Below, in pieces: positions 46,098 to 58,322 of a stretch of 64,000 nt of DNA. The stretch spans positions 1-64,000 of the IMG/VR virus record IMGVR_UViG_3300021399_000004; one strand, written 5' to 3'. This stretch comes from a virus. Made by a program: the position numbers and the translations under genes. The notes beneath the pieces are model-generated. The model did no database searches, was not told the DNA's origin, and saw only the letters and a program-made list of their open reading frames with translations. The first letter of the stretch is position 1, and each line of letters starts with the position of its first letter.

Positions 46098-46514
46098 TTA
46101 AACATACCAAACAATATACTGAAATGGCTGCTTCTTAATCCAATTCTTCGTAAAGGTCGAAACAGGATAATAACGATATTCACTATCAGAAACGTATGCA
46201 AGACCATCGTTCTTAGTTAGCTCTTCATCTTCCATCTTTTGTAGAAAATCATCTACAGTATAAAGAACTCCATTGGAAGGATCACGCTCCCAATCCTTTA
46301 GTTCTACACTATCAAAATATAGATGTTCATATGGGATTTGAGGCTCAAGAATCCCATCTACATTCATAATACTAAAAAATAGTCCTTCTGGCGTAAGCTT
46401 TACACCATTAGGGAGTAGCTCTCCAACGCGCCAACCACTATTATGCTTATATAGTACACGACGGCCAGCAAAAATCTTAGTTTCCATTTTTTCTCCTTTA
46501 TGCTCTAAATTCAT
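46098..46514 (-). CDS. hypothetical protein
   Basis: 138-aa track ORF followed by a terminator. Confidence 0.45.
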   Translation of the reverse strand: MNLEHKGEKMETKIFAGRRVLYKHNSGWRVGELLPNGVKLTPEGLFFSIMNVDGILEPQIPYEHLYFDSVELKDWERDPSNGVLYTVDDFLQKMEDEELTKNDGLAYVSDSEYRYYPVSTFTKNWIKKQPFQYIVWYV

Positions 46515-46749
46515 CTAGCCAATTAGGCATCATATCTTCTGGTTCAGTTACATTAATAAAATAAGTGTCGTCAGGATGATCTGCGGAAAAATACAAAACT
46601 CCAAATAATGAACGAGCATTTACTCGATGAGTTCCATCTTCAGATTCTAACATATATTTCGTTGATGTCCCATCACTATTAAGTAGCCTTACAAATTTTT
46701 CTGCGTCTGCCCCAGTTATAATACGAATTTTAGTTCTAAAATATCCCAT
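46498..46749 (-). CDS. hypothetical protein
   Basis: 83-aa track ORF. Confidence 0.45.
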   Translation of the reverse strand: MGYFRTKIRIITGADAEKFVRLLNSDGTSTKYMLESEDGTHRVNARSLFGVLYFSADHPDDTYFINVTEPEDMMPNWLDEFRA

Positions 46750-46955
46750 TATCCCTTCTCCACTGTTTCTCGAACTGCATCATCAGTAAGCGGTGATTCA
46801 AGTTCATACAGATAAATACTAAGAATATTATCTGCACCATAATACTTAATTAGTTCATCACAGGCGGCGGCGTAAGATGTTGCGCCAAGAATTCCCTTGT
46901 CACTGTTATCCTTATGTTCGACAGTATCAAAATATTCTACCTTGAAACGAAACAT
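46749..46955 (-). CDS. hypothetical protein
   Basis: 68-aa track ORF immediately downstream of tRNA-Gly. Confidence 0.45.
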   Translation of the reverse strand: MFRFKVEYFDTVEHKDNSDKGILGATSYAAACDELIKYYGADNILSIYLYELESPLTDDAVRETVEKG

Positions 46956-46983
46956 AATTTTGTTTTCTCCTTTTTAATTATTA

Positions 46984-47055
46984 AGCGCGATAACGGACTC
47001 GAACCGTCACGGAAACCTTGGAAGGGTTTAATGACTACCATTACATCAATCGCGC
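46984..47055 (-). tRNA. tRNA-Gly(UCC)
   Basis: Acceptor GCGCGAU/AUCGCGC, anticodon stem AAACC/GGUUU with loop CUUCCAA, T arm GACGG-UUCGAGU-CCGUU. Confidence 0.85.
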
Positions 47056-47245
47056 ATAGTATGCCTTATCTAACATACCTGTTGGCGCATACTACCGCAG
47101 CCGAAGCGTTCGTCGTTCACGAGACACTGGTTAGATTTTGAAGTATTAAGTAAGAAGTTCATCTATACTCACTTCTCCCTATCCAGCCGCCGGACTTCAA
47201 CCGACCCGTCACATCCTGTCAATTCAGGCTTTACTCGGCTTGAAG
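47056..47245 (-). ncRNA. structured spacer RNA between tRNA-Asn and tRNA-Gly (unknown)
   Basis: 190 nt with no credible ORF and GC-richer than coding DNA. Several hairpins (AGUAUGC/GCAUACU, GAAGU/ACUUC, a GCUUCGGC tetraloop) and a long-range CUGGAUAG/CUAACCAG helix. Confidence 0.3.
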
Positions 47246-47319
47246 CGCTCCCTGTAGGACTTGAACCTACGACCCATTGCTTAACAGGCAATTGCTGCTA
47301 CCGACTGAGCTAAAGGAGC
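47246..47319 (-). tRNA. tRNA-Asn(GUU)
   Basis: Acceptor GCUCCUU/AGGGAGC, anticodon stem AUUGC/GCAAU with loop CUGUUAA, T arm GUAGG-UUCAAGU-CCUAC, discriminator G. Confidence 0.8.
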
Positions 47320-47338
47320 ATTTCTTTTTTACAATATT

Positions 47339-47367
47339 ATTATACATAAAATTTTATAAAAAGTCAA
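47339..47367 (-). promoter_or_regulatory. promoter TTGACT-N17-TATAAT driving tRNA-Asn, spacer RNA and tRNA-Gly
   Basis: attata at 47339-47344, agtcaa at 47362-47367. Confidence 0.7.
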
Positions 47368-47705
47368 AACATACGCTCATTAATTTTTGTATAATTTTCT
47401 ATTGGAGCTTCAATACAATCATTGCAAAAAGGGTAAATCCAATTACGGCTTAACCACATTGCAGGTTTACCACATACAATACATGTATTAGCAGATTGAT
47501 CCTCATACTTATCTTCTATATCACGAATTGCATCTATTTTACAAGTACTAAAAACATCCATACGGCCCCATTTCTCTTTCATATATGTAACCGTATAAGT
47601 TGGATCAAGCTCTTCACATTCTTTAATCATTTGTCTAGCAAGTTGGTGCCATCCTTCTGGTAAATTATCTAGAAAATAATAATTATCCATATATCCCGCC
47701 ATCAC
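47364..47705 (-). CDS. hypothetical Cys-rich protein
   Basis: 113-aa track ORF inside the RNA island. Confidence 0.45.
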   Translation of the reverse strand: MMAGYMDNYYFLDNLPEGWHQLARQMIKECEELDPTYTVTYMKEKWGRMDVFSTCKIDAIRDIEDKYEDQSANTCIVCGKPAMWLSRNWIYPFCNDCIEAPIENYTKINERMF

Positions 47706-47731
47706 TTCAAATTCGCATTGTCCTTTTTAAA

Positions 47732-47870
47732 TCAAAGCGGATGAGGATTTGCACCTCACATATCAGAGCATTTCGGGCCGTTCGCTTCGCACATTTCTAA
47801 GGCTATACTCACGTTATAGCTATGCCGCCTCTGACTCCCCTTTAAGCGTCTACCTATTCCGCCACCACTT
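47732..47870 (-). ncRNA. Leu-type tRNA-like RNA A lacking an anticodon arm
   Basis: 7-bp acceptor AAAGUGG/CCGCUUU, Leu-type D arm UGGCGGAAUAGGUAGACGC and T arm GUGAGG-UGCAAAU-CCUCAU. These enclose an 83-nt domain closed by UCAGAG/CUCUGA that has no 7-nt U33 loop. Confidence 0.45.
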
Positions 47871-47983
47871 TAAGTCCGTTTTTAATTAGCAGACCAAGCC
47901 TTCTCCCAACAGTCTGCCATGAGCCACACCGTCCGTTATTTACAGCCACGCACTACGGCTTTGACAAGGTGGCTCGCCCCTTA

Positions 47984-48096
47984 ATTATGCGGGTGAGGAT
48001 TTGCACCTCACATGAGCCGCCATAATCCCCGTATGCCAACGGTTCGTCAACAGCTCTTTTGTTGGCTTCCAGCGTCTACCTATTCCGCCACCGCAT
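47984..48096 (-). ncRNA. Leu-type tRNA-like RNA B lacking an anticodon arm
   Basis: Same D arm and T arm as RNA A. Acceptor AAUGCGG/CCGCAUA has an A1xA72 mismatch. The central 57-nt domain is unrelated to that of RNA A and has no canonical anticodon hairpin. Confidence 0.45.
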
Positions 48097-48164
48097 TATG
48101 TAGTAACCCCGTGTTTATTCTTTTGAGCTTTCTGCATACTACTCTGACCAGCTCAATATTTGTG

Positions 48165-48313
48165 GTGTGCTATTACGCCAAATCTCATATTTCTATTATC
48201 TATCGGTACTTCATACTCGTAGGTCATTATAACAAATGTAGCCTACAATACATTTTGCGCCAATAGAGAAATTAAGAACTCCTTAGCTGAATGGCTGCCT
48301 CTAAGCCAACAGT
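48165..48313 (-). ncRNA. repeated structured RNA element X, copy 1
   Basis: Shares the blocks ACUGUNGGCUUAGARGCAGCCAU.CAGCUAAGGAG, GCAAAAUGUAUU and AUUUGGCGUAAUAGCACA with copy 2. Indels break every reading frame. Confidence 0.4.
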
Positions 48314-48402
48314 CCACAATAAATAAGTGGCTGAGGAGACTCTTGTGCGCTCATTTAATCATTTACATTAATCTGTCTAATGAACCACTTTAATTTATAG
48401 AA

Positions 48403-48942
48403 TTACGGCCATTCCCCAAGCGGCATACCAAGGCCAGCGCGCTCAACATTAGTATTAAAAAACACGCCATCAGTTGCAGGACCAGTCAAAAGCTCATCAG
48501 CAATAGTCTCATATAGAGTGCTAATTACACCATGGCAGTCATTTAGATTATCAGCCGCGAATTGCACTACGCAATTATTGAAAACAACATAAGTAGTACC
48601 AATCCACTGATACCCCTCTTCCGCAGGGCAAACAGAATACGCATAAGCAGGATTTCCCTTAAAAGCAGCATCAAATAGTTCAACCTTGCTCTTAAAAGCA
48701 CGGTTACTTGGTACACCATCTACTGCTACCTTTAGGGTAACATTACCAAAAGAAATTTCATCTGGTAGAATTTGCATTAGCGCGGCCACCTTGTCGCCGT
48801 TATTGCAAGCAAATACAATCGAAGGAGTGGAACCACCAAAATCACAGTTACATGCAATCTGAGGATCGCCATCAAATAGTGCTTCAAACTTACGAATTAC
48901 AATAGTCCAAGGAGGAAGAATCTTTAGCCTTGCATTACTCAT
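48403..48942 (-). CDS. hypothetical protein
   Basis: 179-aa track ORF inside the RNA island. Confidence 0.5.
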   Translation of the reverse strand: MSNARLKILPPWTIVIRKFEALFDGDPQIACNCDFGGSTPSIVFACNNGDKVAALMQILPDEISFGNVTLKVAVDGVPSNRAFKSKVELFDAAFKGNPAYAYSVCPAEEGYQWIGTTYVVFNNCVVQFAADNLNDCHGVISTLYETIADELLTGPATDGVFFNTNVERAGLGMPLGEWP

Positions 48943-48983
48943 ATTTTTAACCTCTCTATTCTCAATATACCCTTTCGGGTTAA

Positions 48984-49055
48984 TACCCCATATATGAGTT
49001 GAACATATATAACGTGCTTAGAAGGCACGGGCTCTCTCCGTTGAGCTAATGAGGC
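48984..49055 (-). tRNA. tRNA-Arg(UCU)
   Basis: Anticodon stem CGUGC/GCACG with loop CUUCUAA, D arm GCUC..GAGC, T arm AUAUG-UUCAACU-CAUAU. Confidence 0.8.
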
Positions 49056-49058
49056 ATA

Positions 49059-49131
49059 TGCCCGTGGTGGGAGTTGGACCCTACTTAACTCAGATTAAAA
49101 GTCTGATGCCTGGCCGTTAGGCTACACGAGC
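49059..49131 (-). tRNA. tRNA-Lys(UUU)
   Basis: Acceptor GCUCGUG/CACGGGC, anticodon stem UCAGA/UCUGA with loop CUUUUAA. The T arm is non-canonical (bulged stem, loop UCCAACU). Confidence 0.7.
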
Positions 49132-49137
49132 TTATGA

Positions 49138-49208
49138 CTGGGGTAGCAGGATTCGAACCTACGATGTTGGAGTCAAAGTCCAGAGCCTTACCACTTGGCG
49201 ATACCCCA
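49138..49208 (-). tRNA. tRNA-Gln(UUG)
   Basis: The 5' end UGGGGUAUCGCCAAG.GGUAAGGC resembles E. coli tRNA-Gln. Anticodon loop CUUUGAC, T arm GUAGG-UUCGAAU-CCUGC, discriminator G. Confidence 0.85.
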
Positions 49209-49223
49209 ATAACTTGACCGAAG

Positions 49224-49454
49224 TCAAGTATGATTAGAAACGTCAGATGCGTTAATAGTTATTTTATCGGCAGTAGTAGTAGTAACAACTGGATATGCTG
49301 TCGCCCACCACTCGCCAAGCCATCCTGAGCAATGTGAACAAAATGTCATAAAAGGAGAATTACTTCTGCCGCATTTAGGACAAATCCAACCAGTTGGTTC
49401 TTTTACATCAGGCTTTGGCCGCCAATTAGCACAATTTTCGCAAGTCTTTTCCAT
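49224..49454 (-). CDS. hypothetical zinc-ribbon protein
   Basis: 76 aa with CENC...CPKCG...CSHC. Confidence 0.45.
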   Translation of the reverse strand: MEKTCENCANWRPKPDVKEPTGWICPKCGRSNSPFMTFCSHCSGWLGEWWATAYPVVTTTTADKITINASDVSNHT

Positions 49455-49551
49455 AATATCACCTTTAAAATAAAATGGTGTGGCTTCACGTCACCACAAC
49501 GACATATGGGTTCTTGCGCGGGCTAACCTCTTTTGTTCTAAAAGCCACTAG

Positions 49552-49626
49552 TACCCTCGGTGGGAGTTGAACCCACAGAAAACCACATTTTGAGTGTGGC
49601 GCATATGCCAATTCTGCTACGAGGGC
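49552..49626 (-). tRNA. tRNA with anticodon CAA (Leu codon UUG) but class-I architecture
   Basis: Anticodon stem CCACA/UGUGG with loop CUCAAAA, T arm GUGGG-UUCAACU-CCCAC, only a 6-nt variable region, discriminator A. Confidence 0.6.
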
Positions 49627-49634
49627 ATAAATAG

Positions 49635-50036
49635 TGCGGGTAGCCGGACTTGAACCGGCACGCCTTACGGCAACAGATTTTCTTACTACTCCATATTACT
49701 ATGGCCGCTTTCGCGTTGTAGTCTGGACTATGTTTTCACCTTATCTTACGACTTAGGTGGCTGGTATATAGTCTCTACACATTTATAATAATAGCTTCCC
49801 GCCGCCAGTTCTTCGACTCTTATCGGCGTTTCTGTCGGGCGCGACCCGCATCCCTGTTTTGCATCTTATTCAGGTTTCTCCTGAACCGACCTTCATCGGT
49901 GCTATTATTAATTTAGCTCGGCGTTATCCCATAAGGATTTTCACCGAATTAGCCAGCATTCACTCAGAAAGTTTCCTATTCTGGTGCTCTTTGTTTTACA
50001 AAAGTCTGTGGTGTCTGCCTATTCCACCATACCCGC
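49635..50036 (-). tRNA. tRNA-Leu(UAA) interrupted by a group I intron (exons 50002-50036 and 49635-49681)
   Basis: 5' exon GCGGGUAUGGUGGAAUAGGCAGACACCACAGACUU and 3' exon AAAAUCUGU...GCCGGUUCAAGUCCGGCUACCCGCA join to give anticodon loop CUUAAAA. Class-II variable arm and discriminator A. Confidence 0.85.
49682..50001 (-). ncRNA. group I intron (tRNA-Leu UAA type, about 320 nt, no ORF)
   Basis: Inserted after U34. P1 can form CUU^UU/AAGAG with a U-G pair at the splice site. The intron ends in G. The core strings GUGUAGAGACUA, CCACCUAAG and AUAGUCC match the conserved J6/7-P7-P3 region remembered from Azoarcus and Anabaena tRNA introns. Confidence 0.85.
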
Positions 50037-50195
50037 AAATTACACGGTGACGCTCACAATTTACCGTAATTTCCCTTATAAGGCCCTGAGGTGGACCCTG
50101 GCGTCTTGTTCTGGCCGTCATCAAGCTCTTCGGCCTGCTTACGACGACTCCACGATGAAGAAAAAACTACCACTCAATCGCTTCCTTTCTTATAC

Positions 50196-50224
50196 ATTAT
50201 ATCAAAATTCTTCTTCATTGTCAA
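50196..50224 (-). promoter_or_regulatory. promoter TTGACA-N17-TATAAT driving a ~140-nt leader and intron-containing tRNA-Leu
   Basis: attata at 50196-50201, tgtcaa at 50219-50224. Confidence 0.7.
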
Positions 50225-50351
50225 GATTATCCATGAATAAATTTTCATAATAATCTTCAATTTTAATACCTTGCAAAGTTGAAGGAATTCCTTCAATTAA
50301 CGGATCAATTTCTGGTAGTTCGTCAAAATTTACATAGTATTCATCTCGCAT
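50202..50351 (-). CDS. small acidic hypothetical protein (start trimmed)
   Basis: Track ORF 50202..50387 begins inside tRNA-Ile. The second ATG at 50351 lies 5 nt after the tRNA, whose 3' GGGGAGGA can act as the SD. Confidence 0.35.
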   Translation of the reverse strand: MRDEYYVNFDELPEIDPLIEGIPSTLQGIKIEDYYENLFMDNLDNEEEF

Positions 50352-50355
50352 ACAA

Positions 50356-50428
50356 TCCTCCCCCTTGGAATTGAACCAAGGACACACGACTTATAAGGAC
50401 GCTGCTCTCACCGCTGAGCTAGAGGAGG
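50356..50428 (-). tRNA. tRNA-Ile(UAU)
   Basis: Acceptor CCUCCUC/GGGGAGG, D arm GCUC..GAGC, anticodon loop CUUAUAA on a stem with one mismatch, T arm CUUGG-UUCAAUU-CCAAG. Confidence 0.65.
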
Positions 50429-50429
50429 A

Positions 50430-50615
50430 TTAATCCTCCACATTTAAACTTTTGCTAATAGTATCTTCATGATACCCCAGTGCGAGTGAAAAGTACCGAA
50501 ACTTATCTACTAATTCCGAATATGTTAGACCTTCATCTCCTGTAGAAAACTTGTAATGAATTTCATCACCGTCACTGTTCGTATAAACAAATTCGTACTG
50601 TTCTTTGAAATCCAC
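50430..50615 (-). CDS. hypothetical protein
   Basis: 61-aa track ORF behind a consensus promoter. Confidence 0.4.
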   Translation of the reverse strand: MDFKEQYEFVYTNSDGDEIHYKFSTGDEGLTYSELVDKFRYFSLALGYHEDTISKSLNVED

Positions 50616-50639
50616 TCTTATCCCCTCGCTATCATATAT

Positions 50640-50668
50640 ATTATATCAAAATTTTTATTGCAAGTCAA
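50640..50668 (-). promoter_or_regulatory. promoter TTGACT-N17-TATAAT
   Basis: attata at 50640-50645, agtcaa at 50663-50668. Confidence 0.7.
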
Positions 50669-51117
50669 CTTCTTTGCCATTCAAAAATTTCATAATTATG
50701 TTCTTGAAACCATCTATGGATTATTGTTCTTTCACTACATTTCTTTTCTGGTTTTTCGTAAACCATTAAAGCAAAATCTACACTATCTAACCCCTCTCCA
50801 GCAGCAATTTTATCCGACATATCTTGTAATTTATCAATAAAAGCATGAAAATTAATTTTACATAATTGCTTATAATATACTCTTAGAAATTGACAATCTT
50901 CTGGATGAGGAGGCTCACAGCATCCATTACATAAGTGATTACATGCTGGGCCAGGAATAAGTGGCGGAATATTCAAACCAATAATAACTCCACGGGCATC
51001 TTTCCCCTACGTTTCAGGCGTCCCAAAATACTTTGGCGGCCAGACCGCAGTTGATAATGGTACTAAATTTTTAGGGAAAAAGCGCACCTAATAGAAATAG
51101 GATGTATAAATCTTCAT
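50665..51117 (-). CDS. hypothetical protein (2 in-frame TAG)
   Basis: Track ORF 50665..50976 extends through two TAGs to the ATG at 51117 (MKIYTSYFY-TAG-VRFF...). Coupled by ATGA to the upstream ORF. Confidence 0.45.
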
Positions 51118-51323
51118 TCCACTAAATCAACCTTCCATCCAAAATAGTTATTATATACAATTGTATTAGCTGTTCCACAGACAGGACAAGTTATATAATC
51201 TTCTTCTTGATTATATTGCATGCTTGTCTATACGTCGTCTTTAGTAAATTCTAGAATAGACCCGCAACGCTTACAAGACATTCGTCCAACGCTAGGACGA
51301 TAGGCGCGTTCAATAACTCTCAT
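51114..51323 (-). CDS. hypothetical zinc-ribbon protein (1 in-frame TAG)
   Basis: 69-aa ORF with CKRCGS...CPVCG, open only if TAG is sense. Confidence 0.4.
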
Positions 51324-51341
51324 TTATATCTCTCCTTTTAA

Positions 51342-51428
51342 CGACACTAGCACGGCTCGAACGTGCATACCCTGTTACAAGTAACCGCAGATTAGCAATC
51401 TGGTGCGTTACCATTCCGCCATAGTGTC
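51342..51428 (-). tRNA. tRNA-Ser(GCU)
   Basis: Acceptor GACACUA/UAGUGUC, anticodon loop UUGCUAA, long variable arm with GUUAC/GUAAC stem, T arm GCACG-UUCGAGC-CGUGC, discriminator G. Confidence 0.8.
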
Positions 51429-51436
51429 ATTTTAGA

Positions 51437-51576
51437 TGTGCTATTACGCCAAATTTCTTATCTATTGCCCACCGCACATCATACTTATAGGACATATAAT
51501 TGTAAGCCTATAATACATTTTGCACGAATGGAGAAAAGAAAACTCCTTAGCTGATGGCTGCTTCTAAGCCTACAGT
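51437..51576 (-). ncRNA. repeated structured RNA element X, copy 2
   Basis: Homologous to 48165-48313. Lies between the degenerate Ser-like tRNA and tRNA-Ser(GCU). Confidence 0.4.
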
Positions 51577-51587
51577 TCTAAAATAAG

Positions 51588-51672
51588 CGACAGTACCAAG
51601 ACTCGAACTTGGGCACCCGTTAAGATGGCTACGGATTAGCAATCAGGTGCGTTACCATTCCGCCATAGTGTC
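51588..51672 (-). tRNA. degenerate tRNA-Ser(GCU)-like paralog
   Basis: The first ~40 nt are identical to tRNA-Ser 51342-51428 except for one base. The 3' half is different: the anticodon stem keeps only 3 pairs, the acceptor has a C-C mismatch, and the T arm CCAAG-UUCGAGU-CUUGG is intact. Confidence 0.4.
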
Positions 51673-51678
51673 AAAAAA

Positions 51679-51753
51679 ATCGAAGATGTGCGATTTGAAC
51701 GCCAACTAGTCGTCCCAAGCGACTCGTGTTACCAGATTACACTACATCCTCGA
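51679..51753 (-). tRNA. tRNA-Pro(UGG)
   Basis: Anticodon stem AGUCG/CGACU with loop CUUGGGA, acceptor UCGAGGA/UCUUCGA. The T stem is weak (3 pairs). Confidence 0.6.
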
Positions 51754-51768
51754 TATTTTTAAAATAAA

Positions 51769-51853
51769 CAGCCCGCTTGGGAGTCGAACCCAATCTGTCG
51801 CTTCAGAGGCTGTGGTTTTAGAGACCACCCGTGCAGCCGCACACCTACGGGCT
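51769..51853 (-). tRNA. suppressor tRNA, anticodon CUA (reads UAG), class-II architecture
   Basis: Acceptor AGCCCGU/GCGGGCU, anticodon stem GUGGU/ACCAC with loop CUCUAAA, an 18-nt variable region containing a UCUG/CAGA stem, T arm UUGGG-UUCGACU-CCCAA, discriminator G. D region is GCGGCUGCACGG. Confidence 0.8.
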
Positions 51854-51886
51854 ATATAAGTGAGGTTTCCCTCACTTTCTATAATA

Positions 51887-51915
51887 ATTATACCAAAATT
51901 TTAATTAAATGTCAA
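51887..51915 (-). promoter_or_regulatory. promoter TTGACA-N17-TATAAT directly upstream of suppressor tRNA(CUA)
   Basis: attata at 51887-51892, tgtcaa at 51910-51915. The leader hairpin AGUGAGGGAAACCUCACU (51858-51877) precedes the tRNA. Confidence 0.7.
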
Positions 51916-52354
51916 ATGTATCACTTGCTAAAACAATCATATAATAACTATTTGGTTCAACATACTCAGTATTTACTAGAATACTTCCATCTTCATTTAA
52001 AGTACCATTACATACCTCAATAGTAATTAAATCCATAGAACAAAATACAAACTTAATAATTTGATCTTCCTTATATTCGCAAGGGAAACTCCAAGTCATT
52101 GTTGGATAAATATCATCTACTTCAACTGTTATGATTTCATAAATACCGTAATAGTCATCTTCAAATAGCTTATTAAAATCAACGACTTCACTTACAGTAT
52201 TATAAATATCTTCCCATTCTTCATCCAACTCAACTACATGAAAAGGCAAATCAGGCTAACACCAATATAAATCTTCAAGAGAAGGACTATCCGCCGCAAA
52301 ACAAGTCGTTATAATCATCATTAATAGCAACCAAATACTTAAAAATCTCTTCAT
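51905..52354 (-). CDS. secreted hypothetical protein (1 in-frame TAG)
   Basis: Track ORF 51905..52249 extends through one TAG to the ATG at 52354, adding the signal peptide MKRFLSIWLLLMMIITTCFA. Confidence 0.45.
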
Positions 52355-52383
52355 AATTATCATCTTCCTTTTTATTTTTTAAA

Positions 52384-52456
52384 AGCCGCCCATGAGACTT
52401 GAACTCATAACCTATTGCTTACAAGGCAATTGCTCTGCCGATTGAGCTAGAGCGGC
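52384..52456 (-). tRNA. tRNA-Thr(UGU)
   Basis: Acceptor GCCGCUC/GGGCGGC, D arm GCUC..GAGC, anticodon stem AUUGC/GCAAU with loop CUUGUAA, T arm AUGAG-UUCAAGU-CUCAU. Confidence 0.9.
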
Positions 52457-53066
52457 GAAAGAGGATACTCTACTTAACAATTATAGTGACCTTCGTCATA
52501 CTTGCAGCATTCTTCAATTATATTCAACCACTACAGAATTAAAGGCTGAGCCATGAGTAGCGACCTCATAACTTCTTTAATCCGCTTTCGCCTAGTGTAG
52601 GAGGGGTTGTTTACCCTCAAGTTTCAGCCAAACCATTCAGCAAATACGATAAAAAAGCTTACCCCGCTTTTGTTTATCATGCTAAATTTCTGTCTTGGCC
52701 TACTCCAACTTTAAACCTTTCTTATATGCCATTTCTGGCTTTCATCGACAGTAACCGCTTGTTGGTCTTTCCTGAGTTTGTACTGGCTACCACCCCAATA
52801 CCTTATCAGGATTCGGCATTATCTATTCAATACTGCTGTCTATTATGCGGCCGAAAGGAATAATGTTTTTAATTGCGAATACTCAAGCGCCTATCCTTAA
52901 TCTTTGGAGTTTCTCCTTTATCGCTAATCATTGCTGATTTCGCGGCTAGATAATAAAAGTATCCTTCTATCATTGCTAGCGATTGTCCGGATAGCCCAAG
53001 CTACGTGGTTAGCGTATCTGCACTTGGTTCTAAAATTGCTAAGTAGAATATCCTCCCTCTCAGTAT
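52457..53066 (-). ncRNA. large structured RNA 1 (~610 nt; ROOL-like candidate by size and context only)
   Basis: Starts just downstream of consensus promoter 53073-53101 and ends at tRNA-Thr. No ORF on the transcribed strand. Visibly GC-richer. The ends pair over 19 bp (53037-53055 with 52472-52490), and the two differences between the arms are both G-U compatible. Confidence 0.55.
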
Positions 53067-53072
53067 AATACT

Positions 53073-53101
53073 ATTATACCAAATTTTTCTTTAAAAGTCA
53101 A
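53073..53101 (-). promoter_or_regulatory. promoter TTGACT-N17-TATAAT driving large RNA 1 and tRNA-Thr
   Basis: attata at 53073-53078, agtcaa at 53096-53101. Confidence 0.7.
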
Positions 53102-53113
53102 ATATTTGACTAG

Positions 53114-53186
53114 TGGACTGACGGGGAATCGAACCCCGACTCTCTGCTTGCAAGGCAGAAGTGCTAACCATTATCACTACCAGCCC
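53114..53186 (-). tRNA. tRNA-Ala(UGC)
   Basis: G3-U70 wobble in the acceptor, anticodon stem UCUGC/GCAGA with loop CUUGCAA, T arm GGGG-UUCGAUU-CCCC. Confidence 0.9.
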
Positions 53187-53386
53187 ATATTCACTTACTT
53201 TCGTTGTCTTTTTATTATAGTGTGCTGCTAAATGACTAAGCCACATATCTTTTAACTCCACTAAAGCACATTTGGTTTAGCATTTCCTTACTTGGTCTAC
53301 AGTTAAAAGCCGGTGGTAGTTTAGTGAGAATCCATCCTTACCGCACACTAGGCCTATTTTATTACACGCAGAGCGCCCATGCGTAC
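53187..53386 (-). ncRNA. structured RNA between the split tRNA and tRNA-Ala (unknown)
   Basis: Nested long-range helices UAGUGUGC/GCACACUA (53343-53350 with 53218-53225) and CUUUUAACU/AGUUAAAAG (53301-53309 with 53249-53257). No ORF. Confidence 0.4.
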
Positions 53387-53530
53387 TGGCGCTCCCCATA
53401 GGATTTGAACCTATAACCCTGCGGTTAGGGCAGAGGCGAGAATTGAACTCGCAACGTGGGCGTCCCTCACACGATTACCAAATCGTCTCTCTGCTACAGC
53501 CGCATGCTCTACCGATTGAGCTAGAGGAGC
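53387..53530 (-). tRNA. class-I tRNA (Asn GUU if joined at canonical positions) with a 68-nt insert in the anticodon loop; CCA encoded
   Basis: Perfect acceptor GCUCCUC/GGGGAGC, D arm GCUC-AAUCGGUA-GAGC, T arm AUAGG-UUCAAAU-CCUAU and anticodon stem UGCGG/CCGCA. The stem strands are 75 nt apart instead of 7. Confidence 0.6.
53428..53495 (-). ncRNA. tRNA-shaped insert within the anticodon loop of the 53387-53530 tRNA
   Basis: Acceptor-like AGCAGAG/CUCUGCC, D-like hairpin ACGAU-UUGGUA-AUCGU, short hairpin GUGAGGGACGCCCAC, canonical T arm GCGAG-UUCAAUU-CUCGC, then one discriminator-like C. Confidence 0.5.
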
Positions 53531-53569
53531 ATAGAATGGGGATTTTATTTTTCCCTCATTCACAATATA

Positions 53570-53598
53570 ATTATACATTATTTTTTACTTTAAGTCAG
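53570..53598 (-). promoter_or_regulatory. promoter CTGACT-N17-TATAAT driving the split tRNA
   Basis: attata at 53570-53575, agtcag at 53593-53598. The leader hairpin GAAUGAGGGAAAAAUAAAAUCCCCAUUC lies at 53534-53561. Confidence 0.6.
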
Positions 53599-53602
53599 AT
53601 TT

Positions 53603-55315
53603 TTAATAGTAGAAATAATATTGTTCTGGCAAATTTTTATTGTCATTTAATTCTCGTACAAAGCGTTTAATATTTGGTCTTGGAATGTATTGCGATAACT
53701 TTTTAATTCGTCTACTAAAGAATATTGATTGCTAATTTTCATTCTCTCGGCTATTTTCATCTGCATATTTCTTATAGCTTTGTAGATAAAATCGTCTTAT
53801 ATCTTTCCAATATTGCTCTAAAAATTCAGGATGGTTTTTAACACAACGAAGAAAGTAATTATACAAATCAATTAAGAAAATATTCATTTTTTCTATTATA
53901 ATACTAGTGTCTACTTTTGCTTTTTCGCATAAGTTAATACAGTAAATACCATTATCTACAATGCCTGGCAAAGCTGTATATAAAAAATTTTTATTATCCT
54001 TATATGTTAATGAATTTTTATTTACTACAGTTTTATATATTGGCAAATCATAATGCCGAATATGATATGTCTATTCTACTCTATTGTAGTCATCAATAAT
54101 AGCATAGCAAGTCAAATTTATACCACAGTCTTCTGCCGCAAAAGAACCAACACCTTGATTATATGGTAAAATATTATAAACTTCTAAGAACTCTCTACGA
54201 TATACTTTACCGGGTGTAGATGGTTCATATGCACTTTGTACTATATTATCTGCGCCGTTAATCCAACTCCATTCATAAATGTCCATAACTCTATTATTGT
54301 CTAATTCATCTTTTACAGCTAGTAAACAATATTTAGATAAAATAATATCGCCGCAATCTACAAAAGTTAAATATGTACCGTGTGTATTTTGCATGCCGAT
54401 GCGTCTGGCATTGCCGGGCCCCTAATTCTTTTCTAATTTAATCAACTATATTAATGGAAACTATTTAATTATATTAGTATAATCAACTGATGAAGCGTCA
54501 TCAATTACTACAATATGTAACCACTCATATTCTGGATAATAAACAGATTTTAAAGTACGTATTAATCCTTTTTCATCATTATAACTAGGTATAATAATAT
54601 CTAAATCTATCTTATCCGATTGATTATATATTATTTTATTATTAGGGATAGACATATATTTATTAAAAATAGGATATTTCTACCATTCATGGTTCCCTGC
54701 AAAATGATTTATTTTTCTACTTTTTGCTTTCTAAAAATCAGTAGAATCATTCATATTATAGTCAGGTGGTAAATTTAAAATATAACCTTGACATAATTTA
54801 TTTAAAGCATTTTGCTCTGGAAAAATTTCATAATGATTATTAATATAATTAATTAGTTCATCATCTTTTTTATCATCTCGTAATTTTTTTAGATTCATTA
54901 ACATAACGCCGCAGTTAATATCTAAAAACATTTCAGTACAATTAGAAGGCTAAGACGAAGCGGCAATGTAATAATCACTAATATCTATATCCCATAATTC
55001 TGAAATATTTTCATTTACAATTGTATCAACATCTAATGACAAAACTTTATCTAAGTCCGGGAATATTTTTCCTAAAGCAACTCGTATTAAGGCCATATAA
55101 GTAAATTCACTTTTAAAATTAGGCCCATGCTTATCAAAATAAGTCTAATTACTTACATTTAATGTTTTTGTTTTTGGCGGTAATTCATATGGAAATACGT
55201 CATCTTCAATTAGAAAATAAATCTATTCAACATTTGAATGAATAAGTAATGATTTTGCTGCACCAATCATATATTTGTAAAGGTTTCTGGTGCCTGTATA
55301 TACCGCTGTCCTCAT
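53603..55315 (-). CDS. fused family-8 / family-2 glycosyltransferase (about 10 in-frame TAG)
   Basis: Four track fragments (53732..54046, 54071..54394, 54461..54655, 54731..54931) plus the N-terminus share one frame, and every junction is TAG. GT8 motifs LSLDVDTIV and NCGVMLMNLKKLR. GT2 motifs IIIPSYNDE, VVIDDASS and GPGNARRIG. If the TAG at 53732 terminates, the end is 53732. Confidence 0.55.
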
Positions 55316-56010
55316 AATATTTCCTCCCATTTCAAATTGATATAATATCGTACAATGGGTTCTACAAAGAAATAATCACGAATACCAGCATAATGATAAA
55401 TTTTTCTTTTATTAGGATTATAATTCATAAATAATGGATGAGAATTATATTCTGTTGGTAATTCTAGAATATGATTCTTATATACCTTATTAAGAGTATC
55501 CTATTCGGCGTACTCTTCTCTATAATGATTTAATCTAAAAATCATTTTTTCATCCATTTTATCTTCACGAATTTTTTTTAAATTACATAATAATACTCCG
55601 CCGTTTACATATAATCCATTTTTATTAAATTCTGGTGTATCTCTTACGCCAGCAATATAATAATTTGATATATCAATATCCCAAAGTTCATCTATATTTT
55701 CAGTAACAATTGTATCAATATCTAAAGATAGAATCTTATCTAACTCTGGGAATATTTTAGAATAGACAGAGCGGATAAGAACCATATAGCCACCCCATCC
55801 ATCATACCAATTCATGCAAGTTTCTTTCTTAAACCATTGCTAATTACTGATATTAATACACTATACTTTATCTGGTAGTTCATAAGGGAAAATATCATCT
55901 TCAATTAATAAAAATATCTAATCAATATGAGAGTTCATTAGTAATGATTTTATAGCAGGTATCATTTTATAATACACATTTCGTGTTCCACTATATGCCG
56001 CTACTTTCAT
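55312..56010 (-). CDS. family-8 glycosyltransferase (4 in-frame TAG)
   Basis: ATG at 56010 to TGA at 55312. Contains LSLDIDTIV (DxD) and NGGVLLCNLKKIRE. Confidence 0.6.
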
Positions 56011-56044
56011 ATTACACTTCCTTAAATAAAATTAAAGTTTATAA

Positions 56045-56117
56045 TACCCGATGTGAGATTTGAACTCAACATTTCAGGCTTGAAAGGCCTGCGTGCTTAC
56101 CTTTACACAAATCGGGC
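56045..56117 (-). tRNA. tRNA-Glu(UUC)
   Basis: Anticodon stem CAGGC/GCCUG with loop CUUUCAA, acceptor GCCCGAU/AUCGGGU. The T arm has one bulged U. Confidence 0.8.
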
Positions 56118-56950
56118 ATATAGCGGTTTGATAACTCAGCCGCAACTGAGTAGGCTACACTGTGTGACGGATGCGGCTCGGCCTCTACGGATACCGTCGT
56201 AACGTTATCCTACCGCTTTACCAGTTTACCCCTTGTACTTTGGGCTGGCGAGGACATTCAAGCCTGATGTTTCCTCCCATTCCGTTTTTCACCTATAGAG
56301 TATCTGGCTACTCTATAAGAAGTCGCTACGCTTCTTGCCCCAATCACTCACTGACTGGCGTCATAGCCTTTTTAATGTCTAGACCATGTAACGACAACTA
56401 GCGATGAGAACCATTTATTCTCATTTTCTGGAACACTAGGTACTTTATTTTACTCCTCTTTTGTATAGCGCCGAGTAAGTTCGGTATAAGTACGCAACCC
56501 TTCACTTTGCGCTTTCTTGGCTGTTCTTCAAACTCCATTTAACCCATTCTTCTCATATGCTGAAATTAATCATATTAGCTACTTATGATCCGACTCAAAT
56601 CCTTCTTCAGCATAACAGCATTTGGGCACCATTACTCTGCCTGCCTACCAGAGTCGCAGCAGTTTGGCCCTGCTTGCCGACACCGCATATTTATATACCG
56701 CGAACGATGTGCGGTTTGGCATGTACCATTTAACTATTTATTAATCGCTCTGAAATACGTACCAAAGGAGCGATGGCTTTTCCCTATCCCTTAAGGCACG
56801 GCCGCGCTTTTAAATAATGCCGCCCTATATCTCTTCAGGTCTGGTCTTTGCCAATCCCCACTTCCCATTTCCGAAGTGTAGCGCACCATGTTAGTTTGGC
56901 TCAACACGGATAGCCGCAGCGTAGATTAATGTCCCTACTGTCTTGGACAA
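56118..56950 (-). ncRNA. large structured RNA 2 (~830 nt; GOLLD-like candidate by size and context only)
   Basis: Fills the whole interval between tRNA-Asp and tRNA-Glu in one promoter-driven unit (promoter 57096-57124). No ORF on the transcribed strand. GC-richer, with many hairpins, for example the 9-bp UAUAGAGUA/UACUCUAUA at 56294-56317. Confidence 0.55.
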
Positions 56951-57026
56951 TGGCGACTTCGGCGGGAATTGAACCCGCGATTTCCAGTGTGACAGACTGG
57001 CGCGATAACCACTACGCTACGAAGTC
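56951..57026 (-). tRNA. tRNA-Asp(GUC), CCA encoded
   Basis: Acceptor GACUUCG/CGAAGUC, anticodon stem CCAGU/ACUGG with loop CUGUCAC, T arm GCGGG-UUCAAUU-CCCGC, then GCCA. Confidence 0.9.
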
Positions 57027-57095
57027 ATAAAGGCGGTTTAAACTATTTTTAGTCTCATTACCGCCAAGTTTAAGGACTCTCAACCTTACATATAT

Positions 57096-57124
57096 ATTAT
57101 ACTAAATTTTTTAATTAATGTCAA
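57096..57124 (-). promoter_or_regulatory. promoter TTGACA-N17-TATAAT driving tRNA-Asp, large RNA 2 and tRNA-Glu
   Basis: attata at 57096-57101, tgtcaa at 57119-57124. The leader contains a GGCGGU...ACCGCC hairpin. Confidence 0.7.
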
Positions 57125-57277
57125 TTAATCATCATAACACTCGGTTTCAATACCAAGTTCCTCACAGAAGTCAGATTCAATTTCATACCAAGTCTCATGC
57201 ATGGCATAGTCATACGCATAATTAGTGTATTCTTCAGAATGGGCCTCACATACGAAATCATCCAGATAGTTAATCAT
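57125..57277 (-). CDS. small acidic hypothetical protein
   Basis: 50-aa ORF with a GAAGGAGG SD behind consensus promoter 57304-57332. Confidence 0.35.
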   Translation of the reverse strand: MINYLDDFVCEAHSEEYTNYAYDYAMHETWYEIESDFCEELGIETECYDD

Positions 57278-57303
57278 ACTACCTTACCTCCTTCTGTATC
57301 TAT

Positions 57304-57332
57304 ATTATACTTAAATTTTTAATAAAAGTCAA
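57304..57332 (-). promoter_or_regulatory. promoter TTGACT-N17-TATAAT
   Basis: attata at 57304-57309, agtcaa at 57327-57332. Confidence 0.7.
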
Positions 57333-57434
57333 GAAAAAATCATCTAAATTTTTACTCTTTGAACTTTCTCTTTAAAAATAGGTTGTGAGGCTATCGTTAA
57401 ATTCAAGTAAAAATTTCAAAATTTAGATGAAATT

Positions 57435-57463
57435 GTTACCTTTATTCGCGTAATAAAGGTAAC
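57435..57463 (-). terminator. terminator-like 12-bp hairpin ending the RNA downstream of tRNA-Met
   Basis: GUUACCUUUAUU-5 nt-AAUAAAGGUAAC followed by AAUUUCAUCUAAAUUUU. Confidence 0.5.
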
Positions 57464-57783
57464 GGCTAAGAATTTAACATAGTCTTAGCAAACTACGTGT
57501 TTATATCGAAAACAAACCGAGCAGTTATCGTACTGGGTTCTCAACGGCCACGAGTTCGTCGGGTTGGTTCCACCCCGCCGACATACATTTACGAAGATGC
57601 AGGATTACGGCATGATGTTGCTCCGGAACAAACTTATATGGTCATGCGCTCATAGCTACTTATATAAGGAAAAGTAGCCTAAACCGCTATCTTTTCTCCG
57701 CGGTAAGTTAAGATAGCAAAACTTTCCGTAACGACTGTTGCGCACTTAAGTTTCTCCATTATAGATGGAGGCTTCTCGCGCAG
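57464..57783 (-). ncRNA. ~320-nt structured RNA downstream of initiator-like tRNA-Met (unknown)
   Basis: No ORF and GC-richer. Bounded by the tRNA at its 5' side and a 12-bp terminator hairpin at its 3' side. Internal helices include GUCGG...CCGAC. Confidence 0.4.
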
Positions 57784-57855: not shown

Positions 57856-57897
57856 ATATTGGGTTGATTACGGCTCAACCCATAAGCCGCAATCACC

Positions 57898-58245: not shown

Positions 58246-58322
58246 ATTAATCTACTCCTTCGCAGTTCCTTACCTGCTTTCTTTATTTCAAGGGAGGTTC
58301 CTTACCCTCTCTTGATAAATAT

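Follow-up and report, generated by a model that had tools for sequence, protein, structure and literature searches.

A phage amber suppressor tRNA with a copy of the glutamine anticodon loop in its variable region, a candidate member of a two-arm suppressor family

Phages that use genetic code 15 (crAss-like phages, Lak phages, phAss-1 and others) encode a tRNA-Sup-CTA, read in-frame TAG codons as glutamine and rely on host synthetases, and the virus analyzed here resembles them in its CUA tRNA, in the meaning given to TAG and, presumably, in that reliance. In the Borges preprint, a suppressor was detectable in only ~40% of TAG-recoded phages, and the correct charging of phage suppressors by host synthetases was stated as an open question. 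Two amber suppressors of Escherichia coli that insert glutamine offer a second comparison, namely supE, a tRNA-Gln with anticodon CUA, and su7, a tRNA-Trp with anticodon CUA that is charged with glutamine; both insert glutamine since GlnRS still accepts CUA together with Gln-like acceptor features (PMC9976931). A third comes from class-II tRNAs (Ser, Leu and bacterial Tyr, with the suppressors supD, supP and supF), which like the tRNA described here carry a long variable hairpin between the anticodon and T arms. Such a long variable arm is tolerated by the ribosome. In the open-access papers that we searched, which include the Borges preprint, the phAss-1 paper, the theta-ribozyme paper, Yutin 2021, a review of non-canonical tRNAs and a 2025 screen of 213 phage suppressors, neither the variable arm of phage-encoded suppressors nor an anticodon-like loop in it is mentioned. 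The family of two-arm phage amber suppressors set out below is large and apparently undescribed.

The stretch of viral DNA analyzed here (the window) is 64 kb long. It is part of a genome, and another suppressor may sit outside it. When TAG is taken as a sense codon, stop-free coverage rises from 48 to 72 kb. The four TAG sites of a permease ORF align with glutamine in 119/119, 117/119, 119/119 and 110/120 homologs, and the three of PhoH fall in columns where 120/120, 106/120 and 120/120 homologs have glutamine, with serine making up 2 of the ~1,300 homolog residues aligned at the sites of both genes. Judged from these alignments TAG stands for glutamine in the window, and this independent check agrees with the initial annotation. 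We also tried to infer the host from the permease, and rejected this route: its 71%-identical homologs lie in phage-like, not bacterial, contexts, and a scan of genome contigs gave no relative. Among GenBank phages there was no match to a 20-kb stretch of the window (megablast), nor to the CUA tRNA itself (blastn).

ARAGORN called one tRNA with anticodon CUA, at 51768-51854 on the minus strand; its "tRNA-Pyl" label reflects the anticodon only. The program drew an acceptor stem of 8 bp and a discriminator U. Close relatives encode CCA directly 3′ of a discriminator G (...GCGGGCU-G-CCA), so that a 7-bp acceptor stem with G73 is right, as are the termini given by the initial annotation. The mature tRNA is thus 85 nt long (51769..51853, minus strand), with A1 at 51853 and G73 at 51769; CCA is unencoded and UUUAUUUU comes next. 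A 7/4/5/5 cloverleaf is 99.3% paired across 12 relatives, with double changes at 10 pairs. The decoding arm GUGGU-CUCUAAA-ACCAC (51812..51828, minus strand) has a perfect 5-bp stem, with the loop at 51823-51817 and the anticodon CUA at 51821-51819, and relatives keep the CUCUAAA loop unchanged, with covarying stems (GGU/ACC, GGA/UCC, UGA/UCA, GCU/AGC). No other CUA hairpin of the window lies in a tRNA context, and the annotation as an amber-reading tRNA and as the sole tRNA(CUA) stands. The D region is GCGGCUGCACGG and folds, after A8 and G9, into a compact D arm GUGU-GCGGCU-GCAC (51831..51844, minus strand) with a 4-bp stem and a 6-nt loop, its register set by covariation (GUGU/GCAC here, GUCC/GGAC in the L001 type). 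Two nucleotides (GG, 51830-51829) lead from it to the anticodon stem, where one is usual. The T arm UUGGG-UUCGACU-CCCAA (51777..51793, minus strand) is given by ARAGORN and by covariation, and the acceptor stem and core have A1-U72, G2-C71, C3-G70, G10 and G73.

At the gathering score of RF00005, the Rfam tRNA model, the window tRNA goes unlisted, as does every member of its subfamily. The top match in the Rfam tRNA clan is tRNA-Sec, and the compact D arm probably explains both this match and the low RF00005 score. Together with the 8-bp acceptor stem drawn by ARAGORN, the match suggested an 8/5 fold of the kind known from tRNA-Sec and the allo-tRNAs (8/5, 8/4, 9/3), with which the window tRNA has in common a long variable region, a compact D arm and G73. 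We rejected this fold because the CCA-encoding relatives give 7/5 with G73 and covariation sets a D stem of 4 bp. Unlike tRNA-Sec, then, the window tRNA has 7/5 rather than 8/5, 4 rather than 6 bp in the D stem and CUA rather than UCA, and its score remains below threshold (34.1 bits against 47). It is set apart by its long variable region, 5-bp anticodon stem and canonical T loop UUCGACU from tRNA-Pyl, in which the variable loop is very short, the anticodon stem has 6 bp, and a canonical T loop and the D-loop GG are absent.

Upstream of the gene lie a sigma-70-type promoter (TTGACA and TATAAT 17 nt apart, with TG in front of the -10 box; 51887..51915, minus strand), which matches the consensus at 12/12 positions, and a leader hairpin AGUGAGG-GAAA-CCUCACU (51859..51876, minus strand) that ends 5 nt before the tRNA; the folding energy of the 40-nt leader is -13.7 kcal/mol. 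Both had been recognized initially, along with the idea that the supply of this tRNA can be controlled separately. The consensus promoter is indeed there, whereas separate control is weak, because the same promoter type drives neighboring tRNAs and the ROOL RNA; eight similar promoters scoring 11-12 of 12 occur on the same strand within 12 kb (46.5 to 58.5 kb), and this promoter is not special to tRNA(CUA). In relatives a small pseudoknot-like element takes the position of the leader hairpin, and MAFFT registers for it are inconsistent. Downstream, all on the minus strand, follow tRNA-Pro(UGG) (51679-51753), two tRNA-Ser(GCU) (51587-51672 and 51341-51429) and a terminator-like hairpin (51300-51282). 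From the spacing and the lack of a strong promoter in between, the genes at 51341..51753 are probably co-transcribed with tRNA(CUA). A small coiled-coil ORF lies upstream of the tRNA in relatives; in the window the ORF at this place is unrelated and has a signal-peptide-like start. We considered a conserved upstream gene as a partner of the tRNA and found no link, and no synthetase domain was detected in 10 ORFs near the tRNA array scanned with Pfam.

The variable region, AGCCUCUGAAGCGACAGA (51794..51811, minus strand), is 18 nt long, against the 4-5-nt class-I loop of tRNA-Gln, a regular example of which, with anticodon UUG, lies at 49136-49209 (ARAGORN). The length of this region, a possible 4-bp helix UCUG/CAGA in it, the D region and the class-I tRNA-Gln(UUG) had all been described in the initial annotation and are present in the sequence. 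The same region also contains a copy of a glutamine anticodon loop, GC-CUCUGAA-GC (51800..51810, minus strand; heptamer 51808-51802, with the "anticodon" CUG at 51806-51804). The window tRNA therefore differs from a tRNA-Gln in its decoding arm as well, which has CUA and not YUG, with CUG in the loop of the variable region only. Two mutually exclusive helices can form here. The Gln-type hairpin has only two closing pairs in the window subfamily (GC/GC), and these never vary, where the family criterion is a covarying stem of at least 3 pairs and other subfamilies have 3-6 covarying pairs. The alternative UCUG-AAGCGA-CAGA, with 4 bp and a 6-nt loop (51794..51807, minus strand), buries UCUG and is more stable by 2.8 kcal/mol (ViennaRNA); it is 93.6% paired in 12 relatives, through one-sided (wobble) changes only, and is unconserved in other subfamilies.

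A scan of IMG/VR gave 87 loci; its pattern specified the anticodon arm and the T loop only and left the variable arm free. Because all family scans used exact-match patterns, the proportions describe pattern matches and not all phage suppressors, and among these matches the variable region contains Y-YUG in 48/56 distinct tRNA(CUA) with a long arm. The remaining 8/56 are genuine Leu-, Ser- or Tyr-type tRNAs of other phages. None of the 77 distinct Ser-, Leu- or Tyr-type long-arm tRNAs of the same loci has the Gln-loop motif. The family loop, YU-[C/U]UG-A-R, equals the anticodon loop of genuine phage tRNA-Gln: U33′ is found in 45/48, C or U at 34′ in 41 and 7, U35′ and G36′ in 48/48 each, and A37′ in 45/48. 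Both glutamine anticodons, CUG and UUG, occur in it, and in the Gln set only these two. CUUUGAA is the commonest loop of genuine phage tRNA-Gln(UUG) (31/62), and CUCUGAA that of tRNA-Gln(CUG) (51/58, a count biased by the scan pattern). Both pairs that close the loop are formed in 34/34 distinct hairpins, one of them running through CG (16), GC (12), UA (4), AU (1) and UG (1), and the covariation score of the hairpin is 0.549 against 0.207 in shuffles; by this sequence evidence the variable-arm hairpin is real across the family. Its placement matches that of the anticodon loop in a class-I tRNA-Gln: the distance from the loop end to the T stem is 9 nt (range 8-10) in 47/48, compared with 9-10 nt in genuine class-I phage tRNA-Gln(CUG), while the 5′ distance to the second loop varies from 3 to 11 nt. 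The order decoding loop, Gln loop, T loop was found in 69 stretches, and the reverse order in no real two-hairpin tRNA. Apart from the covarying stem of at least 3 pairs, the window tRNA has the features by which the family is defined, with a CUCUAAA arm joined to the D stem, followed by Y-U-[C/U]UG-A-R in the variable region and a second loop that ends 8-10 nt before the T stem (the distance is 8 nt for the window tRNA and 9 nt for its closest relatives). A search of GenBank with a query from another subfamily led to phAss-1 (OQ749652.1), where a family member at 62445-62532 is annotated only as tRNA-Sup-CTA.

Most family members have a class-I-type D arm, in which they are unlike class-II tRNAs, with a 4-bp stem and a loop of mostly 8 nt (6 nt in the window). 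Compared with 1,355 distinct phage tRNAs, the nearest body is that of Gln for 14/48 members and of Ser for 2/48, and the window tRNA matches none. Determinants of GlnRS recognition recur through the family, namely G73 (37/48), G2-C71 (41/48), G10 (45/48) and a weak or mismatched 1:72 pair (41/48); acceptors are heterogeneous, one group (the L014 type) having C1-G72 and U73. All four determinants are present in the window tRNA, and its pair 3-70 is C3-G70. In E. coli tRNA-Gln this pair is G3-C70. A review (PMC9976931) names G73, the weak 1:72 pair, G2-C71 and G10 as determinants whose mutation brings a loss of up to 10^5-fold, counts pair 3-70 among the important positions, and describes a strong dependence of GlnRS on the anticodon bases.

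Opal suppressors have the corresponding arrangement with a different triplet. The motif UCCA[ACU], which is the anticodon loop of tRNA-Trp (CCA), lies in the variable arm of 44/71 long-arm tRNA(UCA), in the same place as the Gln loop, and the Gln motif never occurs there; of the long-arm tRNA(CUA), by comparison, 47/64 have the Gln motif and 1/64 that of Trp. In the Trp set the 3′ hairpin often forms a perfect anticodon arm of 5 bp, with a variable loop of 4 nt after it. In ORFs of the same loci, TAG aligned with Q in 224/552 cells (14.7x background) and TGA with W in 60/149 cells (40.6x background), a tally limited to ORFs with at most 2% recoded stops to exclude off-frame ORFs. TrpRS, too, depends on anticodon bases. 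The ochre-type tRNA(UUA) matches have Leu-like class-II bodies without a sense-anticodon hairpin, and LeuRS is an enzyme that does not read the anticodon. At locus L087, for example, the decoding arm has CUA and the variable-arm loop has CCA, and if the two-arm design is true, TAG is predicted to mean tryptophan in this phage; the locus is 8 kb only and holds one usable ORF with 3 TAG codons.

We take the window tRNA to be a glutamine-inserting amber suppressor of a widespread phage family with tandem anticodon arms, at a probability of about 0.6. The broader proposal, that recoding phages use a general two-arm design in which a 5′ stop anticodon decodes and a 3′ sense anticodon serves charging, seems to us slightly better than an even bet. 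The triplets for charging would be CUG or UUG where TAG means Gln and CCA where TGA means Trp, and we infer from these patterns that the synthetase reads the second loop. Host RNA polymerase would transcribe the gene from the consensus promoter along with the tRNA-Pro and the two tRNA-Ser, RNase P would cut off the hairpin leader, and host enzymes would trim the 3′ end and add CCA. The 5′ hairpin (CUCUAAA), with the usual junction to the D stem, would then read UAG on the ribosome. The second hairpin, placed where a variable arm would be, would present a copy of the tRNA-Gln loop (CUCUGAA, with CUG) at the class-I distance from the T arm, and this loop together with G73, the weak 1:72 pair, G2-C71, G10 and U35 would give glutamine identity. 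Charging would be carried out by an anticodon-dependent GlnRS of the host, or by a non-discriminating GluRS followed by GatCAB, and it is this identity through which TAG would come to be read as glutamine. More generally, a second arm may allow anticodon-dependent synthetases (GlnRS or non-discriminating GluRS, and TrpRS) to charge tRNAs that they would otherwise read poorly. The loop could be read by direct contact, or in an alternative fold with the second arm in the anticodon position during charging. In the classical L-shape the variable arm points away from the face that is bound by the class-I GlnRS, so direct reading would need a rearrangement or a second binding mode. In the window itself, the competition of the weak 2-pair hairpin with the more stable 4-bp helix speaks against the two-arm reading.

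The hairpin may have nothing to do with charging. Glutamine could be attached through the known features only (U35, G73, the weak 1:72 pair, G2-C71 and G10), with the hairpin left over from the tandem duplication of an anticodon arm or put to other use: it might stabilize the fold, act as a decoy for an anticodon nuclease or offer a handle to a modification enzyme or a phage protein. This alternative is unlikely in our view, yet deserves serious thought. According to a preprint (PMC12636597), E. coli GlnRS is known to accept phage-derived tRNAs(CUA) as substrates, and UAG was suppressed efficiently in E. coli extract by six of them. The extra arm is not strictly required, as some phages have a class-I Gln-like tRNA(CUA) without it; in phAss-1 such an ordinary tRNA lies beside the two-arm one. 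In L062 and L037 the 5′ strand of the first hairpin (ACGG, GCGG) recurs in the second, as expected after a recent duplication, and in the window subfamily the second hairpin is nearly melted. A relic, however, would not be expected to keep U35′ and G36′ invariant in 48/48 while the stem runs through five pair types, and neither a decoy nor a role in stability predicts that CUG and UUG alone are used in the Gln set and that the loop switches to CCA exactly in tRNAs for which TGA means tryptophan. A further idea is that the two arms take turns: the 3′ arm of a tRNA-Gln(CUG) would work for charging and for CAG in one fold, and an inserted 5′ arm would read UAG in the other. The 9-nt class-I spacing of the 3′ hairpin to the T arm, the canonical D-stem junction of the 5′ hairpin and the often perfect 5-bp arm with a 4-nt variable loop in the Trp set are all in keeping with such dual use. 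We nevertheless think it improbable, given that the window also encodes a normal tRNA-Gln(UUG), that the second stem has 2-3 pairs in many members, which is poor for a decoding arm, and that, on the ribosome, a hairpin protruding at position 26/27 would probably cause a clash.

The initial annotation took the body of the tRNA as Ser-like and as predicting serine, and offered three ways to square this with the glutamine signal: an unusual charging route, a suppressor outside the window, or insertion of serine. The evidence favors the unusual charging route, and insertion of serine is unsupported. A class-II suppressor charged by SerRS through its long arm and G73 would agree with the presence of these two features, with the 4-bp variable helix that can be drawn, with the existence of genuine Leu-, Ser- or Tyr-type long-arm tRNA(CUA) in other phages, and with the fact that SerRS does not read the anticodon (PMC7609411). 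The D arm, however, matches no isotype, the body is not Ser-like, and the GGUCU-NNN-AAACC arm once cited as a mark of Ser is found in Trp (16/38), Ser(UGA) (8/30), Ile(UAU) (7/31) and Tyr (5/33) phage tRNAs. The short variable arm has a loop of 6-7 nt, conserved in sequence, that copies the Gln loop, whereas the two genuine tRNA-Ser of the same operon have ordinary variable stems of 5 bp with 3-nt loops. With TAG on invariant glutamine columns and serine nearly absent from them, we give the serine reading very little weight. We think as little of an ordinary Gln suppressor beyond the 64 kb that would do the decoding and leave the window tRNA accessory or inactive. The window is partial, some related genomes hold two or three suppressors, and a 193-kb relative combines two-arm suppressors of two subfamilies (L041 and L077). 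Against this stand the perfect promoter at the tRNA(CUA) gene, the cloverleaf kept by compensatory changes in 12 relatives, and the 9-14-kb tRNA arrays of relatives L041, L004, L042, L023 and L056, in which the counterpart of the window tRNA is the only CUA tRNA found.

If the two-arm design is true, it could explain how host enzymes correctly load phage tRNAs that read stop codons. The triplet in the variable arm would predict the amino acid of a recoded stop directly from the tRNA gene, and the design would be a reason why standard tools miss many suppressors. It would also add a new kind of identity element to those known in tRNAs, an anticodon shown away from the decoding position, and provide a natural template for engineered suppressors charged by endogenous anticodon-reading synthetases. 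Among the known systems, su7 comes close in that only the middle anticodon base separates the window decoding arm GGUCUCUAAAACC from the commonest tRNA-Trp arm of phages; supE and su7 are, however, ordinary class-I tRNAs with one anticodon arm, to which the window tRNA adds a hairpin with an intact Gln loop. Class-II arms vary in sequence and have small loops, in contrast to the conserved 7-nt loop of the two-arm family, which equals a sense anticodon loop, and class-II suppressors insert Ser, Leu or Tyr where the two-arm CUA family is predicted to insert Gln. The operator of the thrS mRNA offers an analogy for the proposed function, in that an anticodon-like stem-loop elsewhere in an RNA would recruit the matching synthetase, there ThrRS, and in mimics of the thrS type a swap of the triplet swaps the enzyme (PMC9976931). 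The thrS mimic regulates translation of an mRNA, whereas by this analogy the mimic described here would sit in a working tRNA and serve its own charging.

On the minus strand of the window, ARAGORN called 16 tRNAs between 46,984 and 57,855, including the candidate amber suppressor tRNA(CUA) at 51768-51854 and a class-I tRNA-Gln(UUG) at 49136-49209. The label "tRNA-Pyl" given to the former reflects its anticodon alone. All the features listed in the initial annotation are present in the sequence, namely the minus-strand decoding arm GUGGU-CUCUAAA-ACCAC, the 18-nt variable region AGCCUCUGAAGCGACAGA, the D region GCGGCUGCACGG and a G directly after the acceptor stem, together with a promoter and a leader hairpin. 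This is also, as had been claimed, the sole tRNA(CUA), with no second CUA hairpin in tRNA context found in the 64-kb window. It is not among the matches of the Rfam tRNA model at the gathering score, nor are the CUA tRNAs of its relatives, and its top clan match is tRNA-Sec at 34.1 bits (threshold 47); the tRNA-Gly(UCC) called by ARAGORN at 46984-47055 (minus strand) is likewise absent from the Rfam tRNA matches at gathering threshold. About 2 kb from the array, the gene at 43694-44938 (minus strand) encodes an RNA ligase, with the Pfam domain RNA_ligase and the OB-fold domain PHA02142, that may have a role in tRNA repair, and a Pfam scan of 10 ORFs near the array found no synthetase domain.

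Relatives were collected from IMG/VR by a pattern of anticodon arm, 18-34 nt gap and T loop, which gave 87 loci (numbered with the prefix L); 12 of the sequences share the unusual D arm of the window tRNA and form its subfamily. Because several members encode CCA straight after the G (...GCGGGCU-G-CCA), the acceptor stem has 7 bp and G73 is the discriminator, confirming the initial assignment, and the 8-bp acceptor of the 8/5 fold drawn by ARAGORN was rejected on the same CCA position. In the subfamily alignment the resulting 7/4/5/5 cloverleaf is 99.3% paired, with two-sided changes at 10 pairs, and the register of the D stem is set by GUGU/GCAC versus GUCC/GGAC. A8, a 6-nt D loop and a 2-nt spacer separating the D and anticodon stems are the oddities of this subfamily, and probably account for the poor model scores.

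Reading TAG as sense raises the coverage of the window by stop-free stretches (100 codons or longer) from 48 to 72 kb and fuses fragments into long ORFs with up to 18 TAG codons, while the replication genes hold none. The codon is used unevenly. TAG-free genes include DNA polymerase III alpha (6296-10255), two topoisomerase/gyrase-subunit-like ORFs (18642-22660), a helicase-like ORF (13197-14810) and an NrdD-like ORF (2865-4808), all but the first named from their translations without a database match; of the names in this TAG-free and TAG-rich list, those of Pol III alpha, PhoH and the glycosyltransferase are backed by database matches. The TAG-rich genes are the glycosyltransferase (10), the PhoH-like gene (7), an 892-aa ORF (14) and a plus-strand 1,835-aa ORF at 58496-64000 (18). 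At the four TAG sites of a xanthine/uracil permease (30219-31493), homologs of 68-93% identity carry Q in 119/119, 117/119, 119/119 and 110/120 cases, and three of the seven sites of the PhoH-like gene (35200-36444) fall on Q columns (120/120, 106/120 and 120/120), the others being one column of N 68 and Q 43 and three variable ones. For the permease, the homologs have phage-like surroundings and are called full-length, which we take to mean that their Q are real CAA or CAG codons, provided that the gene caller used the standard code, and thus the Gln signal at TAG noticed initially is real. Among the scan loci, an all-against-all ORF comparison in which X stood for the recoded stop aligned TAG with Q in 224/552 cells (14.7-fold over background) and TGA with W in 60/149 (40.6-fold).

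The variable region, left unconstrained by the pattern, was tabulated for all long-arm tRNA(CUA) of the 87-locus scan. A hairpin with the 7-nt loop Y-U-[C/U]-U-G-A-R is found in 48 of the 56 distinct sequences, which together with their stop-anticodon arm makes them what we call two-arm suppressors. When anticodon-loop numbering is applied to this loop (primed positions), U35' and G36' are invariant (48/48), U33' and A37' are each present in 45/48, and position 34' is C in 41 and U in 7; positions 34'-36' therefore read CUG or UUG, both Gln anticodons. CUUUGAA is the most frequent anticodon loop in genuine phage tRNA-Gln(UUG) of the same loci (31/62), as is CUCUGAA in tRNA-Gln(CUG) (51/58, although the pattern used in a further scan biases this figure), and none of the 77 distinct Ser/Leu/Tyr-type long-arm tRNAs of these loci has U[CU]UGA in the variable region. 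The two closing pairs are formed in all 34 distinct hairpins, one of them as CG 16, GC 12, UA 4, AU 1 and UG 1, and the stem's covariation score of 0.549 exceeds both the 0.207 of shuffles and the scores of slid registers, which reach 0.16 at most. The loop lies 3-11 nt from the first arm and ends 9 nt (range 8-10) 5' of the T stem in 47/48, matching the 9-10 nt of genuine class-I phage tRNA-Gln(CUG). The arms keep a fixed order: CUCUAAA, UCUGAA, T loop occurs in 69 stretches; the reverse order occurs in six, none of which is a two-hairpin tRNA. One 193-kb relative carries two such suppressors, and the tRNA arrays of relatives hold no other CUA tRNAs, the window being part of its genome only.

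In the window subfamily the closing pairs of the CUCUGAA loop are invariant (GC/GC only), and the Gln-type hairpin competes with the UCUG/CAGA helix proposed initially. That helix is 93.6% paired in relatives, where all its changes are wobble changes, and in silico folding of the window tRNA favours it by 2.8 kcal/mol over the 2-pair CUCUGAA hairpin. If formed, it would hide the UCUG of the Gln-type loop.

Repeating the scan with the opal arm GGUCUUCAAAACC gave 82 loci. In most long-arm tRNA(UCA) that are not tRNA-Sec-like, the hairpin at the variable position carries the loop CUCCAAA, GUCCAAA or UUCCAAC, the anticodon loop of tRNA-Trp, the arm often being a perfect 5-bp one with 4 nt between it and the T stem; copies of a tRNA-Trp anticodon arm such as CGGGU-CUCCAAA-ACCCG occur in opal suppressors of L197-L278 (e.g., L216, L228 and L274). 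Among 64 distinct tRNA(CUA), the Gln motif U[CU]UGA occurs in 47 and the Trp motif UCCA[ACU] in 1, and among 71 distinct tRNA(UCA) in 0 and 44, respectively. In a motif-blind search for the best 7-nt-loop hairpin, CUG or UUG came out for 38/63 sequences with anticodon CUA, and CCA for 35/63 with anticodon UCA; the modal distance to the T stem was 9 nt for both. Six phage ochre-type tRNAs (L284-L289; loop CUUUAAA, anticodon UUA) combine Leu-like class-II bodies with ordinary variable arms and show no sense-anticodon hairpin (0/6), which would fit with LeuRS, an enzyme that does not read the anticodon. Extra variable-region hairpins, some simple GNRA, were also seen in normally class-I phage isotypes, namely tRNA-Ile(UAU) in L019 and L045, His in L065, Lys in L086 and Asn in L087; the arm of the L019 tRNA includes GAU, an Ile anticodon. 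In L087 a tRNA at 7800-7892 combines a CUA decoding arm with the Trp-type loop GUCCAAA, so that the variable-arm rule predicts TAG = Trp in that phage, whose 8-kb locus offers one usable ORF with three TAG codons.

The variable-arm triplet follows, in two independent systems, the amino acid that the stop codon specifies. TrpRS, like GlnRS, reads the anticodon. For GlnRS this dependence is strong, U35 and G36 both mattering with losses of up to 10^5-fold (PMC9976931). The simplest reading would be that the first arm decodes the stop codon and the second provides amino-acid identity. The first arm has a canonical link to the D stem and the second to the T arm, and these two junctions may point to two alternative stackings of the molecule.

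The initial annotation had proposed a Ser-like class-II body at odds with the Gln signal, pointing in part to the anticodon arm. That impression arose because the GGUCU-NNN-AAACC context of this arm is common to several isotypes and is no Ser signature; among phage tRNAs its frequency is highest in tRNA-Trp (16/38), and Ser(UGA), Ile(UAU) and Tyr have it as well. Ser fills only 2 of ~1,300 aligned cells at the permease and PhoH-like TAG sites, and by body similarity the nearest isotype of the 48 family members is most commonly Gln (14/48) and rarely Ser (2/48), with no clear match for the window tRNA itself. We therefore reject Ser for this tRNA. The acceptor and core features of the family fit Gln: 37/48 members have G73, 41/48 have G2-C71 and 45/48 have G10, and the 1:72 pair is weak or mismatched in 41/48. 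It is plausible that a two-arm architecture, with its testable mechanism, resolves the paradox of a Gln signal and a long-arm body.

The promoter TTGACA-17-TATAAT with an upstream TG (51915-51887, minus strand) is a perfect match and is followed by the leader hairpin AGUGAGG-GAAA-CCUCACU (51876-51859, minus strand). It had been read as allowing separate control of the suppressor's supply, of which we see no sign, since a 12-kb stretch of this strand (46500-58500) has eight near-consensus sigma-70-type promoters, three perfect (57124-57096, 51915-51887 and 50224-50196) and five at 11/12, before tRNAs, ROOL RNA and small ORFs. The suppressor, tRNA-Pro and two tRNA-Ser appear to form one unit, headed by the suppressor and ending near a weak terminator-like hairpin (51300-51282). 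Within the array lies a full-length ROOL RNA (Rfam RF03087, 328 bits; 52468-53051, minus strand) with its own 11/12 promoter (53101-53073). The leader of the 58351-58323 promoter also opens with a strong hairpin (-12.3 kcal/mol), and the ROOL leader fold is weaker (-6.4 kcal/mol).

In L042, L004, L026, L056, L001, L057 and L066, about 30 nt directly 5' of tRNA(CUA) are conserved and look like a small H-type pseudoknot, e.g., GGCU-UAU-GGCUG-AGCC-AUAU-CAGCC. Both putative stems are compensatory between loci (GGACUG/CAGUCC, GGGUUG/CAACCC, GCGGC/GCCGC), and the element separates the suppressor from the stop codon of a small coiled-coil ORF; its place is taken in the window by the promoter and plain hairpin. 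In five of six relatives (L066 4602-4664, L057 2554-2615, L001 963-1030, L042 6588-6653, L056 6862-6927) the Rfam cow-rumen-4 RNA precedes the suppressor by ~400 nt, and in L004 (607-669) by ~1 kb; a cow-rumen-3 RNA is close by in two (L041 7261-7401, L001 1512-1656). No match to either RNA was found in the window.

Phage suppressor tRNAs and the recoding of TAG to Gln and TGA to Trp are well known in the literature. In open-access literature we found no suppressor tRNA described as having an anticodon-like variable arm, and an earlier description elsewhere is possible; set against that literature only, it is plausible that the architecture seen in these sequences is new. One paper describes 180 suppressor tRNAs, 99.7% with an amber anticodon, for which tRNAscan isotypes were 69% Gln, 19% Trp and 10% Ile, and these calls are compatible with mixed bodies. 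In the phage phAss-1 (OQ749652.1), tRNA-Leu(UAA), a class-I Gln-like tRNA(CUA) and a two-arm tRNA(CUA) are adjacent at 62445-62610 (L088 11910-12075), a tandem also seen in L002, L029, L040, L052, L067 and L069. Both phAss-1 suppressors are annotated merely as tRNA-Sup-CTA, and this published genome thus holds a member of the two-arm family that has gone unremarked.
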